Below are positions 19,455 to 45,467 of a stretch of DNA of 58,296 nt, piece after piece. The translations under genes were made by a program, and so were the position numbers. A model generated the notes under the pieces. That model made no database searches, had not been told where the DNA came from, and saw only the letters and a program-made list of their open reading frames with translations. The DNA is taken from the NCBI GenBank assembly GCA_045614625.1, contig JAZLDE010000147.1, forward strand, positions 1 to 58,296, in the 5' to 3' direction. The first letter of the stretch is position 1. Every line of letters begins with the position of its first letter. The stretch is from Eubacteriales bacterium (lineage in GTDB: Bacteria > Bacillota > Clostridia > Oscillospirales > CAG-272).

Positions 19455-20981
19455 ATGAACAATCAGCAAAATACCTCCTTGAAGGATCGTCTGCTTGGTG
19501 CCGATCGCCCTTCGCGCGACGCTGTGCGCACGACGCTGATCCTGGCCGCGCTTCTGGCAGCCTTGATCGTGATCAATTTGCTCGTCGGCCTCGTCCCCAA
19601 GGGTGTGACGCTCGTTGACGTGACCGACAACGACCAGTTTACTGTGTCTGCTACGACCAAGGATTTTGTCAAAAAGGTCAAAGAGGACATTACTATCTAC
19701 GTGCTGTGCCCGACCGACGTCATGACCCCCACGCTGGAGGCACTGCTTGCCCGTTATCAGATGCTCAACAGCCATATCCAGGTCAAGACGGTGGATGCGT
19801 TGCACGATACCGAGATCCAAAAAAAGTTCAGCGGTGCGGAGAATATGTCCGATTACAGTATCATTGTCGAAAGCGCCCGCCGCTATCGCATGATCGACAG
19901 CAGTAATATGTATTATTACGTCATTGAAGGTCTGGACGCAACGTTTACCCCGCAGGAATATTATTCCTTCCGCTACAGTGATAACTACGTGCAGATCGCC
20001 ACGGCCTATTATCAGCAATACGGCTTGTATATTGACGACGTGACCCACTACTGCTTCCGCGCCGAGGAAGCCGTCAGCGAGGCCATCGATTACGTGACGG
20101 CCGAGTCCATTCCCCATGTCTACGTGGCAAAGGGACACAACGAAAAGACGTTTGGCAAGACGCTGGCTAACTTCTTGTCGCAGGTATCTCTTGTTTATGA
20201 AGACATCAATTTGCGTGACGTGACTACGCTGCCGAGCGATATGTCCACGCTGGTCATTTATGCCCCCGCGACCGACTTCACCGAGAGTGAGGCGGATATG
20301 GTCATCTCCTATCTGTCACAAGGCGGCAACGTGCTGCTGATCACCTCACCCGAAAATGCGGCCATGCCCAATCTTGCCCGCATTGCTGCCGTCATGGGGC
20401 TCTCTCCTATGGCAGGCGTGATCCACGAGGGTAACGCCAACCGCTACGTTGACGTTCCCACCGCGCTCAATCCCGATATCAATGCCAAGCATACCATCAC
20501 CTCCAGCGGCGTGAGCAACAAATACACCGTCGTTTGCCCCAACTCTCACGGCATCAGCGCGGCAGCCACTCTGCCTGCTAACGTGACGGTGACGGCACTG
20601 TTTACTACCTCGGACGCGGCCTATGTCGTAGCGGGCGACGGTAAGGAAACGGATATCGGCGCGACGGCCATTGCCGTTGCGGCCCAGAACAGCGAAACGG
20701 GCGCCAAGCTGACTTGGTTTGCTTCGGCCGATGCGTTTGAGGACGCACTCGTTGAGAAGAACGGCGGCAACTCGCTGTACTATATGGCGATGGCGCTGTA
20801 CTGGCAGAGCAAGAGCTACACCCCCGTCGTCGGAGACATTGCGCCGGTCGATCTGACGGAGGGCTTCTTGGAGGTCAATGATTTTTCCGTGATCCTGTTG
20901 GGCGCGATCTTCGTCCTTCTCATTCCCGCGGCTTGCCTGGCGATTGGACTATCCATCCGTGCCCGCCGCAAGCGCAGATAA
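19455..20981 (+). CDS. GldG-like ABC transporter auxiliary protein
   Basis: N- and C-terminal TM anchors flank a large soluble domain. It follows ABC-2 permease genes in the usual position. Confidence 0.6.
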   Translation: MNNQQNTSLKDRLLGADRPSRDAVRTTLILAALLAALIVINLLVGLVPKGVTLVDVTDNDQFTVSATTKDFVKKVKEDITIYVLCPTDVMTPTLEALLARYQMLNSHIQVKTVDALHDTEIQKKFSGAENMSDYSIIVESARRYRMIDSSNMYYYVIEGLDATFTPQEYYSFRYSDNYVQIATAYYQQYGLYIDDVTHYCFRAEEAVSEAIDYVTAESIPHVYVAKGHNEKTFGKTLANFLSQVSLVYEDINLRDVTTLPSDMSTLVIYAPATDFTESEADMVISYLSQGGNVLLITSPENAAMPNLARIAAVMGLSPMAGVIHEGNANRYVDVPTALNPDINAKHTITSSGVSNKYTVVCPNSHGISAAATLPANVTVTALFTTSDAAYVVAGDGKETDIGATAIAVAAQNSETGAKLTWFASADAFEDALVEKNGGNSLYYMAMALYWQSKSYTPVVGDIAPVDLTEGFLEVNDFSVILLGAIFVLLIPAACLAIGLSIRARRKRR

Positions 20982-20991
20982 CGAAACCACA

Positions 20992-21022
20992 CAAAATGCT
21001 CGCCGCTCGGTGAGCATTTTGT
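20992..21022 (+). terminator. Hairpin terminator after the transporter operon
   Basis: AAAATGCTC-gccgctcggt-GAGCATTTT followed by GTCT. Confidence 0.5.
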
Positions 21023-21043
21023 CTACCAAAAAAAGGAGTCAAC

Positions 21044-22177
21044 ATGGCATACAGACACGGAGTAGAACGAAACGAGCTTTTGACGCGCGAGCTGCGCGGT
21101 CGCATTGGGCTGATCACCAACCCCTCGGGCGTGGATCAAAACCTACGGGCGACGGTCGATCTCTTACACGAGAACTATGACCTGCGCGCGCTGTACGCCC
21201 CCGAGCACGGCATCCGCGGCGATGCCCAGGCGGGCGCGCATATCGAACACGATACCGACAAAAAAACGGGTCTGCCCGTCTATTCGACCTACGGAAAAAA
21301 GGACGAGAACCCCGAGGACAAGTATCGTGATATCGACACACTGGTGTTCGATATTCAGGACGTCGGCGCGCGGTTTTATACCTATATGTACACCATGACC
21401 GAGGCGATGGAGGCGTGTGCCAAGCTGGGCAAGAGGGTCGTGGTGCTTGACCGATATAATCCGTTGGGGCTTTCTCGCATGGAAGGTACGCTGCTCGACG
21501 AGAGTTTTTCCTCGTTCGTAGGCAAGTACACGCTGGCCTCGCGCTACGGCATGACCATCGGTGAGTTTGCCCGCTACGCCAACGCGGAGAAGGGAATTGG
21601 GTGCGACTTGACCGTCATCCCCTGCGAGGGACTTGACCGCCGCGCCGATTTTCGATCGTTTTCGGTGCCGTGGGTGCTGCCCTCGCCCAATTTACCAACA
21701 TATGAGTCGGCACTTGTCTATATCGGCACGGTGCTGTTCGAGGGAACCAACGTGTCCGAGGGCAGGGGAACGACCAAGCCCTTTGAGCTGATCGGCGCTC
21801 CCTTTATCGACGGCGATGCGCTGGCGGATACCATGCGGCAGATGGATTTGCCCGGTGTCAATTTCCGCCCCGCCTGCTTCACCCCAACCTTTTCCAAGTT
21901 CGCGGGCGAGCGGTGCTACGGCGTGCAGATCCACGTCACCGACGCCGATGCCTTCGAGCCCTTCCGCACGGGGCTTTTGCTGCTTGACACTATCCGTAAA
22001 AGCTATGAGCAATTCGAGTTCCGCGCCTCGTCTGGGGAGAAATGGACGATCGATCTGATCCTTGGCACGAACGCCCTGCGACAAGACGGCTTTGACGCCG
22101 AGACCTTTATTGCCGAGGAGCAGAAAAAGGTGGAGGCGTTCAAGACGAGTGTGGAGAAGTATTTTTTGTATGAGTGA
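21044..22177 (+). CDS. DUF1343 family protein (YbbC/NamZ-like exo-beta-N-acetylmuramidase)
   Basis: IGLITNPSGVDQNL...LYAPEHGIRGD is typical of DUF1343. Confidence 0.8.
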   Translation: MAYRHGVERNELLTRELRGRIGLITNPSGVDQNLRATVDLLHENYDLRALYAPEHGIRGDAQAGAHIEHDTDKKTGLPVYSTYGKKDENPEDKYRDIDTLVFDIQDVGARFYTYMYTMTEAMEACAKLGKRVVVLDRYNPLGLSRMEGTLLDESFSSFVGKYTLASRYGMTIGEFARYANAEKGIGCDLTVIPCEGLDRRADFRSFSVPWVLPSPNLPTYESALVYIGTVLFEGTNVSEGRGTTKPFELIGAPFIDGDALADTMRQMDLPGVNFRPACFTPTFSKFAGERCYGVQIHVTDADAFEPFRTGLLLLDTIRKSYEQFEFRASSGEKWTIDLILGTNALRQDGFDAETFIAEEQKKVEAFKTSVEKYFLYE

Positions 22178-22193
22178 AAAAGGAGATGAGAAC

Positions 22194-22823
22194 ATGACAA
22201 AAAACAAAAGACTTATCTTGTGCATTTTGTGCGTAGGATTGTGCTTGATTATTTATTGCGTATCATATATTGCAAAACTGAATATTTTTGTTCTATCTCC
22301 CCAAGTCGCTAAAGCGTTCACAGGCAATGATCCGGAAACTTTTTGTTCAACTAATGGCGCAGATACGACATTTTACAGAATGTTTACTTATGCCCAAGTG
22401 AAGAAAAACGGAGATTTGATCCTGGTTATGACGGATCAGCAGATCGAGGATTGGAAGAATGGCAATTTCTATTTGCAATTGCTGCAGAAAATAGTAGGAA
22501 GTGAACGTCAAATTGTGACTGAGATTATTCCACCTACGGATCCTGTTTCGGAAATTATTTATGAAAAAGCCGACACTGTGTGCGGATATGAAATTTCAGA
22601 AGACTACACTCAGGTATATGCAGACCCCGGAGATAGTACGTTCTTATATTTTGGATTCGTTCCGCATGCGTGCTTAGCCATGCAGGTTTTGTCCGGAAAG
22701 CCGAGTGATGAAATCAGCTATACGTTTATTGAATACGATGAGGAAGGAAATATCGTAGAGCAGTTTGTTTGGCCGGATGATTTTCTTGATCAAACAGACG
22801 ATGAATCAACAAAAAACGATTAA
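22194..22823 (+). CDS. Hypothetical signal-anchored protein (AT-rich orphan)
   Basis: An ATG at 22194 follows an AAAGGAG RBS. The N-terminal hydrophobic helix is LILCILCVGLCLIIYC. I recognise no family. Confidence 0.5.
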   Translation: MTKNKRLILCILCVGLCLIIYCVSYIAKLNIFVLSPQVAKAFTGNDPETFCSTNGADTTFYRMFTYAQVKKNGDLILVMTDQQIEDWKNGNFYLQLLQKIVGSERQIVTEIIPPTDPVSEIIYEKADTVCGYEISEDYTQVYADPGDSTFLYFGFVPHACLAMQVLSGKPSDEISYTFIEYDEEGNIVEQFVWPDDFLDQTDDESTKND

Positions 22824-22831
22824 TAGTGTTT

Positions 22832-22855
22832 CAGCCGCACTTTCGGGTGCGGCTG
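22832..22855 (+). terminator. Hairpin terminator
   Basis: CAGCCGCAC-tttcgg-GTGCGGCTG followed by TTCTCTT. Confidence 0.55.
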
Positions 22856-22919
22856 TTCTCTTGCAAAAATTCTCTTTCCCCTATTGACAAAACAAAAATT
22901 TTGTAGTAAACTATCATAA

Positions 22920-28417: not shown

Positions 28418-28424
28418 AAATCAA

Positions 28425-28456
28425 GGTCACACGATATTGTACGTGTGACCTTTTTT
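28425..28456 (+). terminator. Rho-independent terminator, copy 1 of a duplicated hairpin
   Basis: GGTCACACG-atattgta-CGTGTGACC followed by TTTTTT. Confidence 0.7.
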
Positions 28457-28588
28457 GTAAATCGAAAACCCCTGCGGTTATGGACTTATGACCTGAAATA
28501 CACCTCGAAAAATATTTTTGCGCGTTGGGATATTTCTACAAAAACAAACACGATTTTTATTCAAAATGCCGATTTTTTATTTTACATA

Positions 28589-28617
28589 TTGACAGATTGA
28601 ACAACACGCTGTATAAT
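28589..28617 (+). promoter_or_regulatory. Consensus sigma-70 promoter, copy A of a duplicated 46-nt promoter/operator block (28580-28625)
   Basis: TTGACA-17 nt-TATAAT. The block is 41/46 identical to 35181-35226 by hand alignment. Confidence 0.6.
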
Positions 28618-28741
28618 GTGGACGTGAAATCCGAAAGTGGAACATGGCAAAATGTCCGGACAAATGTAAAAATGTCGGGTTTGTATGCCACATGCCAACT
28701 GCGGACGATGTATTGAATGAACAACGAAAAGGAGTAAGGAC

Positions 28742-30022
28742 ATGAGCGAAGGCACGACGTATGAAGTGCAGTCTCAGGAGTTGGAAGCAACTTCTGAAAA
28801 TCCCATCGTAACTCAAGAGCCGGATGGCATCATAGCTGAGTCCTCGATGGAAAACCAAGACGGAGCGGAATTGGAAAAATCAGATTCCGGATCGTCCAAG
28901 AAAATTGCGTGGAAAAGCGTATGGACGAAGATCTTGGCATTTATCCAAACCAACATATTCACTTCCATGACCTGCAAGATCTCATTGCTTGTGTTGGAGG
29001 CTCTTATGTTACTGCTTTGCGGCATCCAGCTTGTAAAGTGGTGCTTGTCAATCAAAGATACGTACATGAATTATTGGGACGCAATTCGAACGTTTGATAT
29101 TGTCAATATCGTCACGATGGTTCTAATGTTGATTTTTGCAATCACGCTGTTCGCTAAGGTGATTGAAGGTATCGTCGGCATGATTAAGAAGGGACGAGAG
29201 GCCAGCTTTGCATCGGTTGCTACGCTGTTTGCTTTTGCCATCTTCTCCATGTTTATGACTCATCTGTTTGACGGAAAGGAACTTTTGATTTCGTCGTTTG
29301 CTTATGCACCGATGCTCAAAGCGCTTGCATGGATTGTGGGGATATACACCGTGATCAGATTGCTGTTCAAGGACTTTGGTGCACGAGTCTGGTCGGTCTT
29401 CTTCAGCATTGGCGGTATCATTCTCGCCATTGTGATGTTTATGCAGAACGTGGGTGATTTTGCTTTGATCACTTTTGAGACCCTCGGTGAATCGGTTTCG
29501 TTTTCTTTCTCGGAGCTGAATGTAATTGAATTTTTCAAGATCCTTTTCTTTGATGGCAGTTTGACGGATGCCAACGGGGCGGAGCTCTTGCTTATCGCCG
29601 AATTTGCTCTCTCTGATCTCGGTATCGGTGAGATGGGCCTGTTGCTTTGTACGTTGATGCAGATTATTGCAATGGTGGTTGCGGACTTGTTGCCCTATGC
29701 CGCGCTGTCGCTGATGGGATATTTCCTGTACGGCTTGACTTGCAGAAATTACGTTCAGTATTATCAGCTGCGCGCCGCTCAAAAGGTGGCGACCACCATG
29801 CTGGTGATCTCCGTGATGTCGATGGCTTCAACGATCGCCTTGAGCGTATTGGCAAGCAGAGCAGGGGGACTGACGATTACAGTTGATTACGTTAGAGCAA
29901 CCTTGACGATTGTCCTGGACGTCGCTATGATCGTTGTGACCGCATTGCCGTGGAAGTTCTACAATATCACCTACAACCGTCATTTCGCGGAATATAAGAA
30001 GAATGGAGGAGACTACGTATAA
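28742..30022 (+). CDS. Hypothetical polytopic membrane protein (426 aa) with an acidic N-terminal tail
   Basis: An AAAGGAG RBS precedes the ATG. There are about 8-9 hydrophobic helices and no recognisable family. The stop overlaps the next gene's ATG (TAATG). Confidence 0.7.
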   Translation: MSEGTTYEVQSQELEATSENPIVTQEPDGIIAESSMENQDGAELEKSDSGSSKKIAWKSVWTKILAFIQTNIFTSMTCKISLLVLEALMLLLCGIQLVKWCLSIKDTYMNYWDAIRTFDIVNIVTMVLMLIFAITLFAKVIEGIVGMIKKGREASFASVATLFAFAIFSMFMTHLFDGKELLISSFAYAPMLKALAWIVGIYTVIRLLFKDFGARVWSVFFSIGGIILAIVMFMQNVGDFALITFETLGESVSFSFSELNVIEFFKILFFDGSLTDANGAELLLIAEFALSDLGIGEMGLLLCTLMQIIAMVVADLLPYAALSLMGYFLYGLTCRNYVQYYQLRAAQKVATTMLVISVMSMASTIALSVLASRAGGLTITVDYVRATLTIVLDVAMIVVTALPWKFYNITYNRHFAEYKKNGGDYV

Positions 30023-32049
30023 TGGCACTGTTACAATGTGAAATGTGTTGCGGCGAGCTTGAAATATCCCCCGACAAGTCCGTCGGCGTATGTAAATATT
30101 GCGGTTCAACGTTTACGATTCCCAAAGAGATCGAGAAAAAGGGAAATCTGTTCAACCGCGCCAATTACCTCAGACAAAATTGTAATTTCGATAAGGCAAT
30201 CGGCGTATACGAGTCTATTCTGGCGGAAAACTGCGAGGATGCGGACGCGCTGTGGGGCCTGGTGCTCTGCCGCTATGGTATTGAGTTCGTAGAAGATCCC
30301 AAAACGGGCAGCCGTATCCCCACCTGCCACAGAGCCAGCCGTACGTCCATTCTTCTGGACCCCGATTTCAAGGCTGCACTGAATTTTGCGGATGCGGAAA
30401 AGGCAGCGGTATATAAAGAAAACGCAACGCGCATCGACCAGATTCAAAAAGCGATTTTGAGTTTGTCCGACACGCAGGAAAAATACGAGGTCTTCATCTG
30501 CTATAAGGAGACGGACGAGAATGGTGAGCGTACGATCGATAGCGTTTTGGCGCAGGAGCTGTACAATGAGCTGAAAAAAGAAAAGATCCGCACCTTTTTT
30601 GCAAGAAAAACGCTGGAGGGAAAGGTCGGCTCCAGCTACGAGCCTATCATTTATTCTGCCCTGACCAGCGCAAACGTTATGATCGTTCTGGGTACCAAGC
30701 CCGAATACTTTGAGGCAACTTGGGTCAAGAACGAATGGAGCAGATATCTGGATTTCATGCAGGACAGTAGTGATAAGCATCTGATCCCTGCGTACAAGGG
30801 CATGTCGGCTTATCAGCTTCCCGAAGAGTTCGCAGCGATTCAGGCGGTCGATATGTCGCGCATCGGCTTTATGCAGGATTTGTGCGACGGTGTCAAAAAG
30901 CTGCTTCGTAAAAATGAAACCGAGCAGAATAATGGTTCCACCATTTCCAAGGAGAGCTTGTATTCACGCGCAATGGTCTTTTTGGGCAATCGTGAGTTCT
31001 ATAAGGCAGTCGATTACTTTGAAAAGGTACTGGATATTGACCCGCAGTATGCTCGTGCGTATTGGGGACAGCTGTTGGCTTCCTATCAGTGCGTAACCAA
31101 TAATGAGCTGATCAACTGTACCGCGGACGACTGGACTGAGGACGCCAGACTGAACAACGCGCTGCAATTTGCCAACCCCGAGGAAAAAGCCATCTATGAG
31201 GATACGCTGGTGAAGCGTACGGCCAACTTCAAAAAGCTGGCAAACGCAGCGCTTGAGAGTAAAGATTACGCGAAGTGCATTGGCTGGTGTGACAAATTTA
31301 TCAAGCAGAATTCCGGCGACGGAAGCGTTTGGTGGATTCGTCTGCTGGCGGTTCACAATTCTTGCAATTCCAACGAACTGTATCAGCATTGCTTGAAAGA
31401 GGTAGTGTCCATTCTTGATATGCCCGAGTACAAATATGCGCTGGAATATTCCATTCAGGAAGAGAGCGCGATGTACGAAAAGACGGCGCAAAAGATTGAG
31501 CGTGCCGTGCTTGAAAAGCGCAGATCCCTTGTCTACGACGATTGCCACGCGTTTATGTGCGCATCGATCGAATCGATCAAACGCAGAAGACAGGACGGTG
31601 TTTCGGGACAGTGGCGCAACTACGAAGCGGAAGCTGCCGCTTTCGCAACGCTGCGCTCTTATAACGGCAAATTCTGTAGAAACAATATTTTTGCTATGTT
31701 GATCCAGCTGATGCTTTGGGGCATTTGTGCCTTCTTCACGGCCATGATTGCGGCTGATGGCGACGAAACCACGTTCCGTACGGCGTTTTTGACAGTGTTC
31801 GGTTTGGCAGTAGGAATTGCTTGGATCGTTAAGCTTTCCAAGTATTCGCACAAGTCCAAGAGAATTCCTTATTTGATGAAGGAATGTGAAAACATAGGTC
31901 GAAGACTGGAAGGCGACAAGGAAAACGTTGCATACGCCAACGCCCGCGAGGCCAAGGCTGAAAAGCTGCTGGAGGAATTTCTGGCGGATCCCTCGATTTC
32001 CGTGGAGGATATTGAGAAAAAGCGAGCCGAATTTGAAGCAATACTTTGA
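30022..32049 (+). CDS. Zn-ribbon / TPR-like / TIR domain protein with a C-terminal TM hairpin (675 aa)
   Basis: An N-terminal CEMCC...CKYCG ribbon is present. The TIR_2-like block is YEVFICYKETDENG...ANVMIVLGTKPEYFEATWVKNEWSRYL. TPR-like helices flank it. Two TM helices lie at about aa 556-605. Confidence 0.8.
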   Translation: MALLQCEMCCGELEISPDKSVGVCKYCGSTFTIPKEIEKKGNLFNRANYLRQNCNFDKAIGVYESILAENCEDADALWGLVLCRYGIEFVEDPKTGSRIPTCHRASRTSILLDPDFKAALNFADAEKAAVYKENATRIDQIQKAILSLSDTQEKYEVFICYKETDENGERTIDSVLAQELYNELKKEKIRTFFARKTLEGKVGSSYEPIIYSALTSANVMIVLGTKPEYFEATWVKNEWSRYLDFMQDSSDKHLIPAYKGMSAYQLPEEFAAIQAVDMSRIGFMQDLCDGVKKLLRKNETEQNNGSTISKESLYSRAMVFLGNREFYKAVDYFEKVLDIDPQYARAYWGQLLASYQCVTNNELINCTADDWTEDARLNNALQFANPEEKAIYEDTLVKRTANFKKLANAALESKDYAKCIGWCDKFIKQNSGDGSVWWIRLLAVHNSCNSNELYQHCLKEVVSILDMPEYKYALEYSIQEESAMYEKTAQKIERAVLEKRRSLVYDDCHAFMCASIESIKRRRQDGVSGQWRNYEAEAAAFATLRSYNGKFCRNNIFAMLIQLMLWGICAFFTAMIAADGDETTFRTAFLTVFGLAVGIAWIVKLSKYSHKSKRIPYLMKECENIGRRLEGDKENVAYANAREAKAEKLLEEFLADPSISVEDIEKKRAEFEAIL

Positions 32050-32061
32050 TAAACACCAAAA

Positions 32062-32093
32062 GGTCACACGGCGTAAGTCGTGTGACCTTTTTT
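32062..32093 (+). terminator. Rho-independent terminator, copy 2 of the duplicated hairpin
   Basis: GGTCACACG-gcgtaagt-CGTGTGACC followed by TTTTTT. The stem is identical to the one at 28425-28450. Confidence 0.7.
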
Positions 32094-32179
32094 GCTAAAA
32101 ACTGCCGAGGCGCGCTTCGTTTATCCCATGCCAATCAAGGAATAATAATGGTACGATTGATTTGACACAGGAGAAAACG

Positions 32180-34557: not shown

Positions 34558-35097
34558 ATGAATATGAAAAAACAATGGGAAGCTTGGTGCCGCCGGATAC
34601 GATGCGCGATGAACGAATGCTCCGCGGTCGCGCTGCTGATCGGCGCGGCGGCGCTCATGCTGTGCGGCGTGATCGTGCGTGGGGTGTGCGGCAGTCCCTA
34701 TCAAAGCGGTATGATGATGTATTTCGGACGCGTCATTCTGCCCGTGTGGCTGATGACACTGCTTTGGATGACCTGGTACGCGCTGCTCGGCGCTGCCTTT
34801 GCCCGCGTGATGTTCGATCGGCGGTGCGACGGATACACCGAGACCGTCAAATATCGGGGCGGCATGGCCTATCTTGCTATGCTGTTTCTCGGCTTTTTGT
34901 GGTATCCCATCTTCTTTTGCGCGGCGCGTCCCTTTCTCGGCGCGCTCATCGTGCTAGGCGTACTGATTTTATGTGTCATCACAGCGCTGTGCTATATCAA
35001 GCTGTTTCGCGGTGTGGCGTTTTTGCTGCTTTGCCACGCGGCCTTTCTTGTCTGGATGCTGATACTTAATCTGGCAATGGTATTTTATGGCGGATAA
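34558..35097 (+). CDS. TspO/MBR-like Trp-rich five-helix membrane protein (tentative)
   Basis: Size, helix layout and W/Y-rich helices (LPVWLMTLLWMTWYALLG, FLWYPIFF) resemble TspO. This is a weak assignment. Confidence 0.4.
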   Translation: MNMKKQWEAWCRRIRCAMNECSAVALLIGAAALMLCGVIVRGVCGSPYQSGMMMYFGRVILPVWLMTLLWMTWYALLGAAFARVMFDRRCDGYTETVKYRGGMAYLAMLFLGFLWYPIFFCAARPFLGALIVLGVLILCVITALCYIKLFRGVAFLLLCHAAFLVWMLILNLAMVFYGG

Positions 35098-35189
35098 TGA
35101 AAAAACGAACTGAAATTGTTCTGTTTAGACAAAAATAGTTATTTTTATGTAAAAAATATGTACAAAGGGACAAAAATGATTTTTACATA

Positions 35190-35218
35190 TTGACAGATTT
35201 AACAACATGTTGTATAAT
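35190..35218 (+). promoter_or_regulatory. Consensus sigma-70 promoter, copy B of the duplicated block (35181-35226), with an embedded 12-bp palindrome
   Basis: TTGACA-17 nt-TATAAT. The palindrome ACAACATGTTGT at 35202-35213 spans the spacer/-10 junction. Confidence 0.6.
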
Positions 35219-35252
35219 ATGGGCGTCACAAGCAAGAAAGAGAGGTGTTGTG

Positions 35253-35507
35253 ATGAACTATCCAAACGAAAAGCGGGATGAATATATTGAAAAGTTGACA
35301 GAAGAGCTTCCTGTTCTTCGCGCAAGACTTCACATCTCGCAAGGGGAGTTAGCACGTGATGTCGGTATTTCCCGTCAGACGTATTCGCTGCTTGAAACGG
35401 GAAAGCAGAAAATGACCTGGATCACGTTCATGGCGATGATCGCTTATTTCAGCAGTCACACGAGAACTCGCAAAGATCTTAAGGCGCTTGGCCTGATCGA
35501 TGACTAA
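35253..35507 (+). CDS. XRE-family helix-turn-helix regulator (84 aa)
   Basis: LHISQGELARDVGISRQTYSLLETGKQ is an HTH_3 signature. The ATG at 35253 lies downstream of promoter B with an AGAGAGG RBS. Confidence 0.75.
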   Translation: MNYPNEKRDEYIEKLTEELPVLRARLHISQGELARDVGISRQTYSLLETGKQKMTWITFMAMIAYFSSHTRTRKDLKALGLIDD

Positions 35508-35541
35508 TTACCGAATTAAAATGTAAAAAAGGAGACCAACC

Positions 35542-37299
35542 ATGGCTAATTTTACAATTGAATGTCCGAAGTGCGGAAGTATTAACGCAGCTTCTACGTC
35601 GCTGTTCGCAAAAAAAATGATCAAGTGTGGTACTTGCCACACGGAAATTGACGTCAAGGCCAATCGCTTGACCTCGAAGATCTGCCCTCATTGCCATAAA
35701 ACGTTTGTGTATGATCGCGCGAAGAAAAGCCATCGCGACTGCCCCTCTTGCGGCAGAAAGATCGATGCGGCACAGATTGCGACCGGTAAATACAAGTACG
35801 TAACGCTCAACTGCCCTCAGTGTGCATGCGCTATTGAAGTGGATGAAACGAAAGACACATACACCTGTCCCGTTTGCGACCATGAGCTGGACGTAAAGAA
35901 GGAAATGAGCAAGCAGGCGCTGGTGAACGATACGGGTATCAGTGTGATCCAATACGAGGGTGATAACTCCACCTTTGTTTGGAAGCATCCGATCGAGGAT
36001 TTTAATCTTGGCTCACAGCTGATTGTTCATGAATCTCAAGAGGCGGTCTTCTTCTTGAACGGACAGGCTCTGGATCTGTTCGGTCCCGGCCGTTATACCT
36101 TGGATACGGAAAATCTTCCGATCCTCAAAAAGGTATATAATCTTCCCGAGGGCTCGCAGACCCCCTTCCATGCAGAGGTCTATTATATCAATAAGACGAC
36201 GCAGATGGGTATGAAGTGGGGAACCGATTCCCGCGTCAGATTTGTCGATCCCAAGACGGGCATTCCGTTAGACATCGGTGCATCGGGCGAGCTGAACATT
36301 TGCGTCGAGGATTCCCGCAAGTTGCTGAACAAGCTGGTTGGCACGACGAGCGGATTGACCAACAAGGATGTGCTTTGCGCTACCTCGGATGCCGATGGTA
36401 ACGTTCACAGAACGCTGCAGAGCTATTTCCGTGCTCCGCTGGTTACAACAGTCAAGTCCTACCTTGCCACCGTTATCCGCGAGCGCCAGTTGAATATCTT
36501 TGAGTTGGATGCTCACTTGAACGATATCTCCCGCGATCTGAGAGACAAGATCTCGCCACAGTTTGAGGAATACGGCTTGTCGATTCCCGAGTTCTACGTC
36601 ATGCGCATCGGCCTGCCCGAAGATGACGAAAACCTCAGAAGCATCAAGAGACTGATCTCCGAGGCATATCTGGGTGTTCGCGAAGAGGAAGTCAAGAGCA
36701 GCATCGCAGAGGCTGCTCGCCAGAGAAAGATCATTGAGGCACAGACCGAAGCTCAACTTGAGGCAATTCGTGCACAGGGTGCGGCAGAAGCACAGCGCGC
36801 CGTTGGCTTGGCAGAGGCTGATGTCATGAGAGCTAAGGGTTATTCTCAGAAGGACGTGCTGGATGCAGAGGTTCAGAAGGCATATGCCGAGGGCATGGGC
36901 AATCTGGGCAGCGTCGGTGGCAACGGCGGCAGCGCCGGTAGCGGATTTGCGACGGATCTGGTTGGCATGATGGCCGGCATGAAGATGGCAGAGACCATGA
37001 TTGGCAAGATGGACGGTGTGATGGCCGGCGGCGCAGCTGTGGCTCCCAAAACCGAGGCTCCTTCTGCGGCAAGCTGGACCTGCTCTTGCGGTGAAACGGG
37101 CAATACTGGAAAATTCTGCATGAACTGCGGCAGTGCAAAACCGGAACTTTGGACTTGCTCTTGCGGTCATGCGGGCAATAAGGGTAAATTCTGTGAGGAA
37201 TGCGGCAGCCCGCGTGTTGCCCCCTCTTGGGATTGTGAGTGCGGTCAAAAGGGAAATACCGGCAAATGCTGCCCTGAATGCGGCGCAAAGCGTCCTTAA
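35542..37299 (+). CDS. SPFH (Band_7_1, YdjI/COG4260-like) protein with three N-terminal and three C-terminal zinc ribbons (585 aa)
   Basis: The SPFH core reads LIVHESQEAVFFLNGQALDLFGPGRYTLDTENLPIL...KWGT...EEYGLSIPEFYVMRIGLPED. A coiled Ala/Gln/Glu segment follows. The 3x CxxC-x(15-17)-CxxC units are N-terminal, and the 3x WxCxCG-x5-GKxCxxCG units are C-terminal. Confidence 0.85.
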   Translation: MANFTIECPKCGSINAASTSLFAKKMIKCGTCHTEIDVKANRLTSKICPHCHKTFVYDRAKKSHRDCPSCGRKIDAAQIATGKYKYVTLNCPQCACAIEVDETKDTYTCPVCDHELDVKKEMSKQALVNDTGISVIQYEGDNSTFVWKHPIEDFNLGSQLIVHESQEAVFFLNGQALDLFGPGRYTLDTENLPILKKVYNLPEGSQTPFHAEVYYINKTTQMGMKWGTDSRVRFVDPKTGIPLDIGASGELNICVEDSRKLLNKLVGTTSGLTNKDVLCATSDADGNVHRTLQSYFRAPLVTTVKSYLATVIRERQLNIFELDAHLNDISRDLRDKISPQFEEYGLSIPEFYVMRIGLPEDDENLRSIKRLISEAYLGVREEEVKSSIAEAARQRKIIEAQTEAQLEAIRAQGAAEAQRAVGLAEADVMRAKGYSQKDVLDAEVQKAYAEGMGNLGSVGGNGGSAGSGFATDLVGMMAGMKMAETMIGKMDGVMAGGAAVAPKTEAPSAASWTCSCGETGNTGKFCMNCGSAKPELWTCSCGHAGNKGKFCEECGSPRVAPSWDCECGQKGNTGKCCPECGAKRP

Positions 37300-37327
37300 A
37301 CATAAGGTGAAATAAGGAGATATTGAT

Positions 37328-38047
37328 ATGGCACAGAAAAAAGAAAAATTATTTGGATTGCTCTGGGCGATTCTGTTTCTGTTGTATAACGGTGTCGTTG
37401 CGGCGGTTTTAATGATGTCCGATCTTGCTGCTTTAACCCCTTCGTTCTGGGTGGCTTTGGTATTTGCTGAAATTTCGCTTTTGGCACTGTTGGTTACGTT
37501 GCTGGCGCTTGGAAAAACGCTCACCGTACTCAGAGACTGGTTCTTTGGCTTCCCGATCCTTCGTCATTGTGCGCTGTACCTACTACTTACGATGGTTGCT
37601 TCCGGTTTGTTTATGGGCTTCCAGGATCGCGTTGTGTGGGGCATTGTGTTGGCAGTGCTGCTGCTGTTGCTGGCGGTGTACTTGCTGTTCGCACTCTCCT
37701 GCCTGATCGCCAAGCATACGGTTCAGGATATCGATGCTGGGATCAAGGAGAAGCGTCTTTTCATTGATTTGCTGCGTGTTGATGCCGAAATGCTTTGCGA
37801 ATACTGTGAGGATGCTGAGGCAAAGAAATCGTTTTCGAAGTATGCTGAAGCCGTTCGCTTCAGCGATCCCATGAGCAATGAAGCGCTGTTTGAACTGGAA
37901 AAGGAGATTCAGTTTGAAACCTCGAATGCCATGGATGCACTCAAGCAGGGCAATTTGTCGGATGCGCTGATTCATTGCGATCAGGCATCGAAGTTGCTTG
38001 CCGAGAGAAACAAAAAGTGCAAGGCTCTTAAGGGTCTGCGCGAATAA
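37328..38047 (+). CDS. Hypothetical membrane protein (239 aa; about 4 TM helices plus a helical cytoplasmic tail)
   Basis: An AAGGAG RBS is present. Hydrophobic helices cover aa 8-135, followed by a charged helical C-terminus. I recognise no family. Confidence 0.65.
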   Translation: MAQKKEKLFGLLWAILFLLYNGVVAAVLMMSDLAALTPSFWVALVFAEISLLALLVTLLALGKTLTVLRDWFFGFPILRHCALYLLLTMVASGLFMGFQDRVVWGIVLAVLLLLLAVYLLFALSCLIAKHTVQDIDAGIKEKRLFIDLLRVDAEMLCEYCEDAEAKKSFSKYAEAVRFSDPMSNEALFELEKEIQFETSNAMDALKQGNLSDALIHCDQASKLLAERNKKCKALKGLRE

Positions 38048-38063
38048 TCGAATAAAGTAAAAA

Positions 38064-38095
38064 ACATCCGATCTGTTGTGGATCGGATGTTTTTT
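38064..38095 (+). terminator. Rho-independent terminator of the HTH-SPFH operon
   Basis: ACATCCGATC-tgttgtg-GATCGGATGT followed by TTTTT. Confidence 0.75.
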
Positions 38096-38136
38096 GCTGA
38101 TCATTTTAAGCCTTGAACGGCCGTTTCCAATGGAAT

Positions 38137-38165
38137 TTGACAATTCCTTGCTTGTCGTGTATAAT
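38137..38165 (+). promoter_or_regulatory. Consensus sigma-70 promoter of the sigma-fusion gene
   Basis: TTGACA-17 nt-TATAAT. Confidence 0.55.
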
Positions 38166-38262
38166 AAAAACGAAAAAATTCCATTCCCCCCAACCTTGTC
38201 GCCCTTTTTGCCGTCTTATAGACAGCAACTTGCAAGATGCACGACAAAGAAAGGAAAATTTT

Positions 38263-41200
38263 ATGGCAAAGCTGAAGTATTTGGAGCACACGGACGAGAT
38301 ACTGGTGGCCCTGACGCTGTCGGGAGATCAGGATGCCTACGAGGCGTTGGTCGCGCGATACGAGAGGTCGGTGCTGGCTACCGCACGCCGTATCACGCAC
38401 GACGAATATCTGGCCGAGGATGCCTCGCAGGAGGCATTCGTGTCGGCGTGGATCAAGCTGGACTGTCTGCGCGAGCCCGCCCGTTTTGGCGCGTGGGTGC
38501 GCCGCATTGCCAAAAACTGTGCCGTCAATATCGTCACCCGTCTGCGCGAGTACGTCAGCTACGATGTGCTGGAAAATGCCGTTCATGCAGGCAACTGCGA
38601 CATTGCCGAGGAGAACGAGGACGAGCAAGGAGAGTATATTGCGCTACTACACGAGAGCATCGGCAAGTTACCCGCAAGAGTGCGCGAGATCATCACCCTT
38701 CATTATTTTGAGGGACTGTCCGTTGCCGATATTGCGACGCGACTTGGACTTGCTGTGGGCACGGTCAAGTGGCAGCTACACGACGGCAGAGAGCGCATCC
38801 GAAAAGAAATGGGTGTTATGGAAAAGAAAGTGGATAAAACGCTGGTCGAGCGCGTCATGAAGGAAGTAGAGGAGCTCAAGTTGTGGGGGCTCAAAAACGA
38901 TAAGACGGGCTTTTCCGAGGCGTATGAGAAAACGCTCAAGGCGGTGGAGGAGCTGCCCGAGTGTGGGGAAAAGGATCACGCCATGGCCGACGTGCTCATG
39001 CGGGGCTTTTGGTGGCTGCCCGGGAAGAGAAACGACGAGCTGCTTGCCCGCATCAAAGAATACGCGCTCAAAGGACACAACGACGAGGTCATGGAGAGCG
39101 TATGCGCGGCCGAGGATTCAAAAATGTGGGGCGATCGCCGCATCCCATGGATACGCGACACGCAGATCCCTTACCTTGAGAAGCATGGTTTTGTTAAGGC
39201 GTTGGGCAGAGAATGGTTTTGGTTGGGGCATGCGTATTTCAGAAAAGGGCAGACTCACGAGGGCTTTGCCGCCCTTGACAAGGTGTTGGAGATCTTGACC
39301 CCAAAAGAGGTATACTATGCCAACGCGCTGTCTGCGATACGGATCGAACGGATGCATCAAAATAAGCAGATGCAGGGCAGAGAGGAAAAATGGTATACCA
39401 TGTGCGGGGACGGCGCGCATTACCGCATCCTTGACGGCGAGCTCCGCTGCTGGAGCCGGCCGGGATATAGTGTCGGACAGCTGAGAAACGTGGTGGACGG
39501 TCAAAATATTTTCAGCCATGCTTGCCGCTGTGATAACCGATTTTTTATTCCTAATGCCGCCGTGGGGGATACGATCACGGATCAGGATTGTACGCTGACC
39601 TTCGTCGCAAAGGGCGAAACGGTAAAGACGCCGTGCGGCACGTTTGATGGCTGTGAGATGTGGGAGATCGTGAGCGAGAGTGAGATCTGCCAGACCTGGT
39701 ATGCCGATGGCGTGGGTATCGTCAAGCAGCGTATGAACACGCAGGGCGAATGGTCGGAGCGGTTGCTTAAACACTACCAAATCGTTGGCGGACAGGGGCG
39801 GATTCCCTGTGCTGCGGGCAACGTGTGGGAATACGTTGGGCATGAGGATGCGCAATACATCACGTCGGACGTGAGGTATGAGATGGTGTACAGCGACAAG
39901 GAGGGCGTCACGCTTTCGGGCTTCTTCGCCGTTGAGCGCTTGAAATATGACGAGAACAGCTGGAGCGACATGGTGCTCCAAATGCGCAGTGATTTCACAA
40001 AGATAAGCGAAGCCGGATGGGCACAGATGGTGGACGTTTCCCATGCCGTCGATCGCGCCGAGGCACTGGCCAAAACGCCCTACGAGAAGGCCTACAGCCG
40101 CGCGGCGTGTGACGTTATGCGAAGAATTTTGTCCACCGACAAAGAGATGAATCCCAAACGCACGGTCACGGGACATTGGAATGTGTTTGACGTTAAGCGC
40201 TTGACGCGGGAAAAGGGAAAGCTCCGCGAGATCTGGAATCATTACGGCACCTGCTCGTTTGCCTGGACGTGCATCGATCACAACGATGATAAGGTAGTGA
40301 TGTTCAATGACGTCTATGGCTTTTTGCAGGAAGGCGCAAACTGCCTTTGGTCGGATGATTGGAAGGACGGCTATGCCAAAACGATCGAATTTCAGCGCCA
40401 TGGATTCGTTAATCGGACACAGATCACATGCCGAAGCGTTGGACGAGTAAGTACCAAGGCGGGCGTATTTGACGATTGCCTTGAGGTTACACTGGAAATT
40501 CAAAATCCGGAAAATCGTAGCAATTATCGCTGCGGCAAAAAGACGTATACCTTTGCCCCGGGCGTGGGTATCGTCCGCTTCGTGAGCGAAGACCCAAGAA
40601 ATCATGTGACGCACGAGCTGGCAAGCTACGTCGGTACGGGCGAAGGCTATATGCCTATGCTTGATGGCATGGATCGTCGCTTTGAGGCGATCGGATTGAC
40701 GGGCGGCTACATCAGCGCTGTGGACTATGCCGTTCGTAGGCGCGGGGACGGAAGCCTTTGCCTGATCGAGGATCGCTGCGGCATCCGCGTACTACCGCCC
40801 TACGATGAGAACGATTGGCACAGCATGGTGATATATATGGGAGAGCGTGCCTTTGGCAGAAAGAATGGCGAAGCGCATTTTTACGACGTTTCGCATCTGA
40901 TGGAGCGCTGTCAAGCGCTTGCCAAAACGCCTTATGAAAAGGCACATACAAGGCTTTCCTGCGGCAGTATGCGCCGTATTCTCGAAACCGATGCCAAGTA
41001 CAATCCCGAGCGCACGCACAGCGGGCATATGGACGGATTCTGCGTTCGGTATATAGAGGAGAAGACGGGGCGCGTGGATCTTTTGGAGCAGGAGAATGAT
41101 GCGTTTGAAAACTGGAATATGCACGGTACGGGAGACTGGGGCGCGCCCATGTTCTTCAACGACGTCTACGGCATCTGGGCAGATGCTGCAAACGGCCTTT

Positions 41201-41655
41201 GGAACGAGGTGATCAGGCCAGGTGTGACGATCACGCTGGAGCACAAGCGCCACGGCTACGACGTGACCACAGAGCTTTCCTGCCGCGAGGTCGGCAGCGT
41301 CACCACAGCAGTGGATACCTTTATGAACTGTATCGAGGTAGCAGTTGAGATTAAGGGAATGCCGTATGAGATCTGCTTCCATAACGGCACCAAAAAGTTC
41401 TACTTTGCCCCCGGTGTGGGTATGATCCGCACGGTGCAGGATCACAAGGATCACACGCTGCAGGGCATTTACGATCTGGTGGCCTATGAAGGCACGGGAG
41501 AGGGCTACATGCCGCTTTGCGAGGGCATGACCCGTCGGTACGAGGCGCAGTTTATGCGCGAGGGCTATATTGCCGCGGCCGAGTACGCCATTGAGCGCGA
41601 TAGCGAGGGCAAGCTCTGCCTGATCGAGGACAGATGCGGAATCAAGAAATTATAA
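38263..41655 (+). CDS. ECF-type sigma-70 family factor fused to a ~900-aa non-membrane C-terminal extension (1130 aa)
   Basis: Region 2 (DASQEAFVSAWIKL...FGAWVRRIAKNCAVN) and region 4 (LPARVREIITLHYFEGLSVADIATRLGLAVGTVKWQLHDGR) are present. The ATG at 38263 follows AAGAAAGGAAAA. A helical segment is followed by a tandemly duplicated ~285-aa module. Confidence 0.8.
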   Translation: MAKLKYLEHTDEILVALTLSGDQDAYEALVARYERSVLATARRITHDEYLAEDASQEAFVSAWIKLDCLREPARFGAWVRRIAKNCAVNIVTRLREYVSYDVLENAVHAGNCDIAEENEDEQGEYIALLHESIGKLPARVREIITLHYFEGLSVADIATRLGLAVGTVKWQLHDGRERIRKEMGVMEKKVDKTLVERVMKEVEELKLWGLKNDKTGFSEAYEKTLKAVEELPECGEKDHAMADVLMRGFWWLPGKRNDELLARIKEYALKGHNDEVMESVCAAEDSKMWGDRRIPWIRDTQIPYLEKHGFVKALGREWFWLGHAYFRKGQTHEGFAALDKVLEILTPKEVYYANALSAIRIERMHQNKQMQGREEKWYTMCGDGAHYRILDGELRCWSRPGYSVGQLRNVVDGQNIFSHACRCDNRFFIPNAAVGDTITDQDCTLTFVAKGETVKTPCGTFDGCEMWEIVSESEICQTWYADGVGIVKQRMNTQGEWSERLLKHYQIVGGQGRIPCAAGNVWEYVGHEDAQYITSDVRYEMVYSDKEGVTLSGFFAVERLKYDENSWSDMVLQMRSDFTKISEAGWAQMVDVSHAVDRAEALAKTPYEKAYSRAACDVMRRILSTDKEMNPKRTVTGHWNVFDVKRLTREKGKLREIWNHYGTCSFAWTCIDHNDDKVVMFNDVYGFLQEGANCLWSDDWKDGYAKTIEFQRHGFVNRTQITCRSVGRVSTKAGVFDDCLEVTLEIQNPENRSNYRCGKKTYTFAPGVGIVRFVSEDPRNHVTHELASYVGTGEGYMPMLDGMDRRFEAIGLTGGYISAVDYAVRRRGDGSLCLIEDRCGIRVLPPYDENDWHSMVIYMGERAFGRKNGEAHFYDVSHLMERCQALAKTPYEKAHTRLSCGSMRRILETDAKYNPERTHSGHMDGFCVRYIEEKTGRVDLLEQENDAFENWNMHGTGDWGAPMFFNDVYGIWADAANGLWNEVIRPGVTITLEHKRHGYDVTTELSCREVGSVTTAVDTFMNCIEVAVEIKGMPYEICFHNGTKKFYFAPGVGMIRTVQDHKDHTLQGIYDLVAYEGTGEGYMPLCEGMTRRYEAQFMREGYIAAAEYAIERDSEGKLCLIEDRCGIKKL

Positions 41656-41660
41656 AAACA

Positions 41661-41690
41661 CCCTCCGATTCGAATTTTCGGATCGGAGGG
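41661..41690. terminator. Bidirectional hairpin between convergent genes
   Basis: CCCTCCGAT-12 nt-ATCGGAGGG, with an A-run upstream. Confidence 0.6.
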
Positions 41691-41705
41691 TATCGTTATG
41701 CGTGT

Positions 41706-43076: not shown

Positions 43077-43124
43077 TTTCTACCTCCTAATAATATATTT
43101 AATACAGTTGTTCCGTTGGTTTAC

Positions 43125-44675: not shown

Positions 44676-45467
44676 TTACTTCTCCATCTCCGCGAGCATC
44701 TGCTTGACGAAGGGGAACTTATCGTCCTCGGTCAGATCCAAGAGATCAATGACGGGGTTCATCTTGCGCGCGAACACGTTATGGAAGCCCTCGGGGTGAT
44801 GGGCGTCGCTGGCGAAATAGAACTTGCAGCCAAGATCCTTGGCGATAAAATAGGGGCGCAGGATCTCCTTGAGGTCGTCGGGGTTGTAGCCGGCGGGGGT
44901 GAAATTGAGCTCTACGCCCATACCGCGATCGCGCACCTTGGTAAAAATGTCGATGAGCTCGGCGTCGGAAAACAGCGTCAGGAAGCGAATGGGCTCGTCG
45001 TTGCAAGCAAGTGAGTCGGTGAAGTGGGGCAGACCCGTCTTATAGAAGGGAAGATCCATGGCGAGCATGGTGTGCAGGCGCTCCTTGTAGCGCGTTTTGC
45101 GCGAAAGAGCGTCGCCCGGCGTGACGGCAGGGTCGATGGAATAGCCGCGCAGATTGAGATGGTCGGTCGAGATGATGGCAAAATCCAGCGCCTCGATCTC
45201 CTCTTTGGTGGCACTGAGCGTGTCCGTCTTGTCCATATCAACCTCGGCGCCAAACAAAAATCTGCATTTCTTGCTTTGGGGCAGGGGCAGATGGGCGCGA
45301 AGCTTGGACATGGGGGTATTGGGCCAGCAGTGATCGGTGACGCAAAGCAGGGAAAGCCCTGCAGTCAGACCGTAGGACAGAATGGCAGCGGGGGTCTGTC
45401 TGTCGTCGGCGGAGCAGGGGGACAGGTAAGAGTGGATATGCAGGTCGTGGTCAAGTACGTAACGCAT
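44676..45467 (-). CDS. PHP-domain metal-dependent phosphoesterase
   Basis: The N-terminal DLHIHSYLSPCS...VTDH motif is typical of PHP family hydrolases. Confidence 0.6.
   Translation of the reverse strand: MRYVLDHDLHIHSYLSPCSADDRQTPAAILSYGLTAGLSLLCVTDHCWPNTPMSKLRAHLPLPQSKKCRFLFGAEVDMDKTDTLSATKEEIEALDFAIISTDHLNLRGYSIDPAVTPGDALSRKTRYKERLHTMLAMDLPFYKTGLPHFTDSLACNDEPIRFLTLFSDAELIDIFTKVRDRGMGVELNFTPAGYNPDDLKEILRPYFIAKDLGCKFYFASDAHHPEGFHNVFARKMNPVIDLLDLTEDDKFPFVKQMLAEMEK

Follow-up and report, generated by a model that had tools for sequence, protein, structure and literature searches.

The present work concerns a two-gene cassette (positions 28,425–32,093) in a 58,296 nt stretch of DNA, the whole of which will be referred to as the window, from a Clostridia bacterium (Eubacteriales bacterium, contig JAZLDE010000147.1 of assembly GCA_045614625.1). 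The first gene of this cassette (gene A) encodes a polytopic membrane protein, and the second (gene B) a protein in which a Zn ribbon, TPR-like helices and a TIR domain are followed by two transmembrane (TM) helices. The results presented here firmly indicate that gene B encodes a TIR protein that is anchored in the membrane and retains the catalytic residue, that gene A is its dedicated membrane partner, that the cassette is an accessory element, the insertion of which is absent from a syntenic relative, and that the TIR family to which gene B belongs is functionally tied to SPFH proteins. The reading that we favour, to which we assign a probability of about one half, is that these proteins form a membrane-tethered and SPFH-scaffolded TIR NADase, which would answer perturbation of the cell envelope and would have a role in immunity. 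The original prediction for this DNA had described the cassette as a two-gene TIR-based defence module. The pair of genes is real and it is co-conserved, but it is not self-contained, as it represents one subfamily of an SPFH-associated family of at least 7,937 proteins, and its likely third and fourth components, which are located at 35.1–38.1 kb, fall outside the limits that had been drawn for the cassette.

The domain organization of gene B is seen from Pfam matches and from the AlphaFold2 (AF2) model of the protein, and it agrees with that originally proposed. Starting from the N-terminus, the protein consists of a Zn ribbon (aa 1–35; CxxC motifs at residues 6 and 24), a set of TPR-like helices (TPR_14 match at 45–78) together with a beta-hairpin that is conserved, the TIR domain (aa 154–294), a disordered linker (298–307), further TPR-like helices (310–476, with a TPR_1 match at 312–343), a 68-residue long helix corresponding to a coiled coil (479–546), and a TM hairpin (554–607), after which there is a helical cytoplasmic tail. 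The two helices of the hairpin (554–579 and 584–607) are separated by an acidic loop of a few residues and their flanks are rich in K/R. The presence of a TIR domain, which had been recognized earlier without any profile search, is supported by a significant match to TIR_2 (PF13676; residues 157–280, E = 2.7e-11), the score of which (44.5 bits) is above the Pfam gathering cut-off of 28, whereas the score for the PF01582 TIR profile (20.6) falls just under its cut-off of 21.3. A profile based upon the TIR segment also finds the plant TIR domain 3JRN (AT1G72930), and in this alignment the W234-V-K-N-E238 residues of gene B correspond to W-C-L-D-E within the sequence SSWCLDEL. Foldseek searches with the model of the whole protein retrieved only TPR proteins and they are uninformative with regard to the TIR domain. 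The Glu of the WxxxE / SxWCxxE motif in the alpha-C helix is the catalytic residue in NADase TIR domains. In an alignment of 52 sequences E238, the four Zn-ribbon cysteines and many further residues are invariant, and among the best 120 hits the WxxxE motif is kept in all 117 that retain the TIR region, with the Zn-ribbon cysteines present in nearly all of them. Cleavage of NAD+ is the activity predicted for gene B from these characteristics.

Gene A begins with a disordered, acidic tail of ~55–60 aa that is rich in Ser, Thr and Glu, and it contains eight TM helices based upon hydropathy and the AF2 secondary structure, with an acidic loop of ~55 aa between TM5 and TM6. The N-terminal tail is predicted to be cytoplasmic, and the TM5–TM6 loop is predicted from the positive-inside rule to lie outside the cell. 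The TM regions hold a number of conserved polar or charged residues (D119, N122, R206, D211, and R215). No match for this protein was found in Pfam, NCBIfam, PADLOC or PHROGs, in accordance with its earlier description as a protein with an acidic tail and about 8–9 hydrophobic helices that belongs to no recognized family. Similarly, no nucleotide-binding domain was detectable by family scans and by Foldseek analysis of its AF2 model, which is of low confidence (predicted local distance difference test score, pLDDT, of 59.8), and Foldseek gave no structural neighbour below E = 0.1 for this model. A weak resemblance to claudin/TARP/LetA proteins was disregarded due to the low confidence of the model. 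In an exhaustive profile search of 1.84 billion proteins, the gene A family comprised only 49 representatives, a number that tallies with the ~45 clusters of full-length gene B orthologues (58–74% identity) carrying the same 2-TM hairpin among the matches listed. As the gene A family is confined to these 49 representatives, gene A is specific for the 2-TM subfamily of TIR proteins. Gene A diverges much faster than gene B, the identities among homologues being ~30–39% and 58–70%, respectively.

The association between the two genes was found to be consistent, as had been anticipated for a functional pair. A gene A homologue is located directly 5' of the TIR gene in 7 of the 7 independent contexts of 2-TM orthologues (L001–3, L004, L005–6, L007–8, L011, L012–14, and L015; BLASTP, 1e-44 to 1e-100), and in all six contexts where downstream DNA is available a Band_7_1 gene of the SPFH group follows directly 3' of the gene B orthologue. 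The gene order in these orthologous loci, which we will refer to as type 2, is [PP2C]-Ser/Thr kinase-gene A-TIR-SPFH, where the SPFH protein (Band_7_1) has a double Zn ribbon, and genes for PP2C and an FHA-ABC transporter are sometimes found after it. In three species (L001 1–4145, L005 1–4102, and L012 1–6047), the kinase-gene A-TIR-SPFH cluster is directly preceded on the same strand by genes of a type VII secretion system (T7SS), viz. three WXG100 genes, DUF4176, radical SAM and PP2C, and also an EssC-like FHA-FtsK ATPase that is visible in L012. In L004 and L007, PP2C and the FHA-ABC transporter are present downstream and no T7SS genes occur within 8 kb. Likewise, no T7SS, kinase or PP2C gene was found near the pair in the window or in its strain relatives. 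The most distant homologue of gene A that was inspected (P0165, E = 5e-12; L019 3–3879) is located between a 766-aa transglutaminase-like protein and a TPR-like protein without a Zn ribbon, where the short contig ends. When the GTDB species representatives were scanned with a gene A profile (alignment of five sequences), the sole representative with a homologue was L011 (CAYVKZ010000030.1), a metagenome-assembled genome that is labelled "uncultured Acidiphilium sp." yet holds a full Clostridia-type gene A-TIR-SPFH cluster, so that its label or binning appears doubtful.

Most of the information regarding the connection with SPFH proteins comes from the wider family of gene B. A single sequence search identified the minimum of 7,937 significant proteins cited above, and at least 554 loci were confirmed in another scan. 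The other family members share only the N-terminal 55–60% of gene B, at ~50% identity, and for the paralogues containing a single TM helix the identity to gene B is 35–53% over residues 1–390. The C-terminal part of the paralogues consists of one TM helix (occasionally several) and then a variable region of 100–400 aa (RCC1/WD40-like, DUF6273, LRR_5 and others). In 40 single-TM paralogues the net charge was +3.8 on the N-terminal side of the TM helix and -0.2 on its C-terminal side, a bias which indicates that the TIR module is cytoplasmic and that the variable domain is extracellular. To survey the loci of these paralogues, referred to as type 1, hidden Markov models (HMMs) were built from the loci in hand and 79 metagenomic loci were scanned, 56 of which contained enough upstream DNA. 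An SPFH gene was present upstream in 54 of these 56 informative loci, a gene for a 232-aa membrane-protein family (MEM232) in 53, and both of them in 52. Without exception the genes were ordered SPFH-MEM232-[Zn-ribbon protein]-TIR and shared a strand, with 1–5 tandem TIR genes, and the same pattern is seen in L009, L016, and L018. None of the 79 loci showed a kinase match. Gene A is absent from thousands of these paralogues, though the same TIR module is kept in them, and the possibility that gene A is homologous to MEM232 was rejected (hhalign probability of 1%).

Some additional features of the type 1 loci were observed. At times a ~360-aa protein is found between MEM232 and the TIR gene (L016 8195–9274; also L028, L057, L087, and L098), which has the same N-terminal Zn ribbon/TPR start (MKQFKCEMCGG...) as the TIR proteins, lacks a TIR domain and ends in a Cys-rich motif. 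Up to five tandem Zn-ribbon-TPR-TIR paralogues with differing C-terminal (extracellular) domains are present in L052 (2034–18097) and L009 (8001–17952), and in L009 the array is interspersed with HNH and LHH nuclease-type genes. Among 148 open reading frames (ORFs) flanking 27 type 1 loci, the commonest Pfam families were Phage_integrase (7) and Resolvase (4), and there were single matches to AbiEi/AbiEii, IetA, and a DRT reverse transcriptase. An origin of the family from phages or plasmids was rejected, because no DNA or protein match was found in the phage and plasmid collections and only two loci in IMG/VR.

The accessory nature of the cassette is evident from its comparison with the relatives L104–L106, which show ~78–85% nucleotide identity to the window. 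Their gene order is serA-XRE-PBP1A-TspO-UROD, and none of the four family HMMs (gene A, TIR, SPFH, and MEM232) found a match in them. The longer order glg-ABC-trpS-GT4-serC-serA-XRE-PBP1A-TspO-UROD-rpoB, with the XRE gene directly abutting PBP1A, is kept in a congeneric relative with a TrpS protein that is at least 90% identical. The presence/absence difference that had been suggested for the XRE-PBP1A junction is therefore seen, the cassette being missing from the syntenic relative, which has 350 bp at its site. A second site, where the window carries an 8.1-kb island (34989–43122) opening with the genes XRE2-SPFH-MEM232, is occupied by 277 bp in the relative. Strains that are 98–99% identical to the window retain both cassettes. 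Elsewhere the window consists of core chromosomal genes (feoB, the glg operon, trpS, serCA, PBP1A, and rpoBC), and the names borne by the cluster of its TrpS protein point to an uncultured bacterium of the Oscillospiraceae/Ruminococcaceae.

Both ORFs of the cassette were called with the coordinates and lengths claimed for them, and a direct reading of GTATAATGGCA shows the overlap, as TAATG, of the stop codon of gene A with the start codon of gene B. The claim that the block is AT-rich is also upheld, as its 3,669 nt have a G+C content of 47.1%, the window as a whole having 53.5%, and no other stretch of that size within the window has a lower value (percentile 0.1%). The G+C content at third codon positions is 0.59 for both genes and 0.65–0.76 for the neighbouring serC, serA, PBP1A, and TspO genes. 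The dip is nevertheless modest and it is common to other accessory genes of the window (XRE2, SPFH, MEM232, and LRR_5). The perfect promoter that had been reported in front of the cassette (P1) was found to match the sigma-70 consensus at 12 of 12 positions over 28589–28617; it lies 125 nt 5' of gene A and is the sole perfect match in the region. No riboswitch or other leader element was detected in the 117-nt 5' leader by an Rfam scan and by folding (z = -0.65). The cassette is exactly bracketed by two 35-nt hairpins with a T-run, which form an imperfect direct repeat with identical stems and different loops; there are two copies of this repeat in the whole window where none is expected by chance, and the relative L105 carries an unrelated terminator at the position of the left copy. 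The repeat could represent the scar of an insertion or a portable terminator, or the bracketing hairpins could be terminators and nothing more. Among the window ORFs that were scanned there was no recombinase gene, although the repeat brackets the cassette, and an origin from an integron or an insertion sequence was not adopted for this reason.

The second cassette of the window (35.1–38.1 kb) provides the likely remaining components. Its SPFH and MEM232 genes are located ~3.5 kb 3' of gene B, with PBP1A, TspO, and XRE2 lying between, so that the arrangement differs from the type 1 loci, where these genes are immediately upstream of the TIR gene. The SPFH protein, which has repeated CxxC motifs at its C-terminus, shows 40–45% identity to the SPFH proteins of type 1 loci and 34% to those of type 2. 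The MEM232 homologue, for which there is no Pfam match, has N-terminal TM helices and a cytoplasmic helical tail with RFSDPMS and RNKKCK motifs. The promoter of this cassette (P2) has the -35 box, the -10 box and nearly the whole spacer in common with P1. The 34-nt cores of the two promoters (ACATATTGACAGATTTAACAACATGTTGTATAAT at 35185–35218 and ACATATTGACAGATTGAACAACACGCTGTATAAT at 28584–28617) are near-identical, with the likeness running a few bases further on both sides, and this core has two matches in the window where none is expected by chance. Due to this shared promoter and its palindrome, which is perfect in P2 and imperfect in P1, XRE2 is the natural candidate for a repressor of both promoters acting through a common operator. 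The TIR pair and the XRE2-SPFH-MEM232 genes are probably separately inserted units that carry the same promoter/operator, and that work and are regulated together.

Coordinates of these features are collected in Table 1. Other observations on the second island and its surroundings are as follows. Besides the three genes above, the 8.1-kb island holds a sigma-70-like gene (start at 38264; one ORF of ~1,130 aa to 41655) and a BspA-type LRR_5 gene (41706–43076) on the minus strand. The strain L020 diverges from the window after 39035, and to the right of MEM232 and the second cassette it has a 44-nt remnant copy of the 3' end of TspO (L020 8401–8444). In view of this remnant and of the 35-nt repeat that brackets the first cassette, both cassettes look like discrete insertions. 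The relative L105 also lacks 20873–22864, which contains namZ and an unannotated ORF (22062–22823) in a stretch of 42% G+C, as well as 44689–45494, which contains a PHP-domain gene.

Table 1. Positions of the features of the two cassettes within the window.
Feature	Position	Strand	Remarks
Left 35-nt hairpin/terminator repeat copy	28423–28457	+	Also terminates the upstream XRE gene
Promoter P1	TTGACA 28589–28594, 17-nt spacer, TATAAT 28612–28617	+	12/12 sigma-70 match
Imperfect palindrome of P1, ACAACACGCTGT	28601–28612	+	Lies within P1
Gene A	28742–30022	+	426-aa polytopic membrane protein, ~8 TM helices
Gene B	30022–32049	+	675 aa; AF2 mean pLDDT 87.4 (confident)
Codon of E238	30733–30735	+	Predicted catalytic Glu of the TIR domain, W234-x3-E238
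Right 35-nt hairpin/terminator repeat copy	32060–32094	+	Terminator of gene B
Promoter P2	35190–35218	+	Near-identical to P1
Perfect 12-bp palindrome of P2, ACAACATGTTGT	35202–35213	+	Overlaps the -10 box
XRE2	35254–35507	+	84-aa HTH_3 regulator (84-aa gene call in L020), first gene of the second cassette
SPFH/Band_7_1	35542–37299	+	585 aa; Band_7_1 3e-42; no TM helix; N- and C-terminal Zn ribbons
MEM232 homologue	37328–38047	+	239 aa; E = 1e-105 to the family HMM
Terminator of XRE2-SPFH-MEM232	38058–38096	+	Hairpin + T-run; sub-threshold Rfam leader/terminator-like matches

The favoured reading of these data can be set out as a series of steps. Gene B would act as a cytoplasmic Zn-ribbon-TPR-TIR-TPR module that is anchored by its TM hairpin and co-translated with gene A. 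An SPFH protein of the soluble YdjI/SamI type would be brought to the membrane by membrane partners and Zn ribbons, and would keep the TIR proteins dispersed and inactive. There is precedent both for such recruitment and for a tether, as the soluble SPFH protein YdjI/SamI enters a stress-sensing complex to which its membrane partners recruit it (PMC8581546; bioRxiv 10.64898/2026.02.06.704340; PMC11237479), and a TM tether restrains the TIR NADase TirC of Dictyostelium (PMC13142454). A perturbation of the envelope, for which an incoming toxin and the adsorption or injection steps of a phage are candidate triggers, would be detected in type 1 proteins through the ectodomain, or, in the 2-TM subfamily, through gene A replacing the missing ectodomain. 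Clustering of the TIR domains through the coiled-coil stalk would then create composite active sites, and the clustered domains would cleave NAD+, leading either to its depletion (abortive infection) or to a nucleotide signal. In this scheme, the cleavage of NAD+ by the TIR domain, the stimulus that triggers it, the interaction between SPFH and TIR, and the role in immunity are all predictions from sequence, and an anti-phage function, as the original prediction suggested, is plausible. A role in conflict or immunity is favoured here because of the swappable ectodomains, the tandem arrays, the recombinase-rich flanks, the low G+C content and the presence/absence polymorphism.

A number of points weigh against this reading. 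The sole PADLOC match is a weak, TIR-only one to PDC-S66 (1.4e-4). Gene A, the AF2 model of which is poor (pLDDT 59.8), could be a sensor, an adaptor or an effector. The content of the flanks, judged by raw counts, is suggestive of islands, and the family is nearly absent from phage and plasmid collections, with only two IMG/VR contigs. The N-terminal module, with ~50% identity over thousands of proteins, is unusually conserved for an immune gene, and such conservation fits a housekeeping signalling role equally well. Lastly, the SPFH-MEM232 genes of the window are not next to the TIR pair and the SPFH is of another subtype than that in the orthologous loci, so that the proposed link between the pair and the SPFH protein in the window is based upon the shared promoter and upon their co-absence in one relative.

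The strong conservation of the cytoplasmic module, together with the kinase, PP2C, and FHA genes of the type 2 loci and the precedent for SPFH proteins in membrane stress, means that non-immune signalling stays a rival. In this alternative, the genes would form a module for envelope stress or membrane homeostasis, i.e. a surveillance complex resembling those of the phage shock protein (PSP) and SamGHI systems, in which the TIR domain would serve as an oligomerisation scaffold, or as the maker of a second messenger that tunes envelope physiology, and the ectodomains would sense environmental or host cues. We regard this as rather unlikely, and yet it draws upon several of our observations, viz. 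that the SPFH protein belongs to the Band_7_1/YdjI type, carrying Zn ribbons and lacking a TM helix, where YdjI/SamI is known to sense membrane stress (PMC8581546; PMC11237479; bioRxiv 10.64898/2026.02.06.704340), that the cytoplasmic module is very strongly conserved, that the family is abundant in gut Clostridia, that PBP1A is flanked by the window cassettes and that Ser/Thr kinase, PP2C, and FHA-ABC signalling genes are found in the orthologous loci. The invariant catalytic Glu, however, argues for an enzyme over a scaffold, the cassettes are dispensable and vary among strains or species, the tandem paralogues (up to five) with swapped ectodomains and recombinase-rich flanks resemble conflict systems, and in the loci inspected no PspA gene is found beside SPFH.

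The location of some type 2 clusters raises the further possibility that they are accessories of a T7SS in interbacterial conflict, where they would sense or regulate its firing or guard against incoming T7SS toxins, the copy in the window being a detached remnant. The clusters in L001, L005, and L012 continue directly from T7SS genes on the same strand, those in L004 and L007 carry PP2C and the FHA-ABC transporter downstream, and the Ser/Thr-rich cytoplasmic tail of gene A could be a target for the kinase or the FHA protein. The H1 type VI secretion system (T6SS) of Pseudomonas, with its PpkA-PppA-Fha1-TagQRST threonine-phosphorylation pathway, may offer an analogy. As the window and its strain relatives are without T7SS, kinase or PP2C genes near the pair, L004 and L007 are without T7SS genes within 8 kb, and the kinase is missing from all of the paralogue loci scanned, we consider such a role improbable. 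Slightly more improbable still is an autonomous, Thoeris-like system of two genes, in which the TIR protein, once it senses infection, would make a nucleotide signal and gene A would be a pore or channel effector that collapses the membrane. The tight coupling and co-conservation of the two genes and the conserved polar and charged TM residues of gene A accord with this possibility, and membrane effectors are common among signalling defence systems. However, the orthologous loci also carry SPFH, and usually a kinase, so that the pair is not autonomous elsewhere; gene A, which is lacking in thousands of paralogues, is unlikely as a general output if it is the effector of only ~45 clusters; the anchoring of the TIR protein in the membrane beside gene A suits direct contact better than a diffusible signal; and a nucleotide-binding domain was not detectable in gene A, as described above.

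Regardless of which of these explanations holds, the family is an abundant one in human and animal gut Clostridia, in which a TIR domain that is predicted to be catalytically competent is wired to the membrane, often has swappable ectodomains and is nearly always paired with SPFH. To our knowledge, the bacterial TIR systems described so far operate in the cytoplasm and respond to intracellular events. If the SPFH-scaffolded TIR NADase proposed here is immune in function, it would represent surface-level threat sensing by a bacterial TIR receptor, it would provide a concrete function for SPFH/flotillin-like proteins, which are poorly defined in bacteria, and it would bear on the dynamics of the gut microbiome, both between phages and bacteria and among bacteria. 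Should its function lie outside immunity, these would still be TIR signalling proteins of a large family that we did not find described, and their output, the breakdown products of NAD+, is known to matter in the gut.

With regard to known systems, scans of all components against PADLOC, NCBIfam, and PHROGs identified no named system, in agreement with the original prediction, with the kinase matching generic kinase models only and with PADLOC giving no match for the paralogues P0098 and P0070 or for any partner protein. Thoeris (types I–III) was rejected, as the NCBIfam ThcB4 model scored 27 bits against a cut-off of 220, there was no PADLOC Ths match and no ThsA-type neighbour is present. 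The earlier statement that a ThsA-like partner is lacking also holds, since none of the window ORFs scanned (150 aa or longer) had a SIR2, SLOG or Macro domain, and the genes tabulated for the related loci include none of these domains either. The likeness to PDC-S66 (E = 1.4e-4, 19 bits) covers only residues 134–261 in the TIR domain and leaves the rest unmatched, and it does not amount to membership. A full-text literature search, which did not reach subscription-only papers, found no paper tying TIR to SPFH/Band_7. We could thus not find the SPFH-associated TIR family of gut Clostridia described in the literature, PADLOC v2 or NCBIfam; a prior description is possible, and there is a realistic chance that the family constitutes a distinct receptor-type class of TIR proteins with SPFH scaffolding.

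The cassette resembles the bacterial TIR NADase effectors (Thoeris ThsB, TIR-STING, SpbK-type, and AbTir-type) in possessing TIR_2 and the Glu of WxxxE, in being made up of species-variable accessory genes and in its expected activation by oligomerisation. It differs from them in having no ThsA (SIR2, SLOG, Macro), STING or cyclase partner, and in that gene B is anchored in the membrane, contains a Zn ribbon, TPR arrays and a coiled-coil stalk, and has SPFH and polytopic membrane proteins as partners. With SARM1 and TirC of Dictyostelium it shares the presence of helical repeats flanking a TIR NADase, and a tether or auto-inhibition would similarly restrain a toxic NADase (PMC13142454 for TirC), whereas its regulatory domains have no relation to theirs (TPR and Zn ribbon in contrast to ARM and SAM) and a bacterial operon with SPFH is involved here. 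The PspA-YdjGHI (SamGHI) system of B. subtilis is alike in having an SPFH protein of the Band_7 type that is soluble and carries one or more C-terminal Zn ribbons, the likeness to YdjI being one of architecture, in the location of the SPFH gene beside genes for a membrane protein and for a protein with a Zn ribbon plus TM helices, and in its predicted action beneath the membrane. From the published description of YdjG (PMC11237479), which includes an N-terminal Zn ribbon and a TM anchor, gene B may be comparable to it. Unlike this system, no pspA is found among the genes tabulated for the related loci or beside SPFH in the window, where its neighbours are XRE2 and MEM232; gene A and MEM232 do not seem to fit the YdjG/YdjH descriptions; the TIR enzyme is an extra, defining component; and the cassettes are accessory and not core.

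An analogy in architecture is provided by the animal Toll-like receptors, as the common paralogues of gene B have a variable repeat ectodomain (LRR_5, RCC1), one TM helix and a cytoplasmic TIR domain, and occur in tandem arrays with different ectodomains. The order of the domains is however reversed, with TIR being N-terminal, the catalytic Glu is kept, which indicates a protein of the enzyme type and not a pure adaptor, gene B has no ectodomain, and no homology beyond TIR is implied. TIR domains are common to the immunity of animals, plants, and bacteria. It is possible, though on balance we remain doubtful, that the family constitutes a major unrecognized innate-immune-like receptor system of gut Firmicutes, consisting of thousands of TM TIR receptors that would be organized by SPFH proteins and would cleave NAD+ upon detection of phages or competitor toxins at the envelope, each of them having either a variable extracellular sensor or, as with gene A, a polytopic co-receptor dedicated to it. 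If true, it would be a bacterial counterpart of the logic of Toll-like receptors, with an enzymatic TIR domain and a flotillin-like platform.

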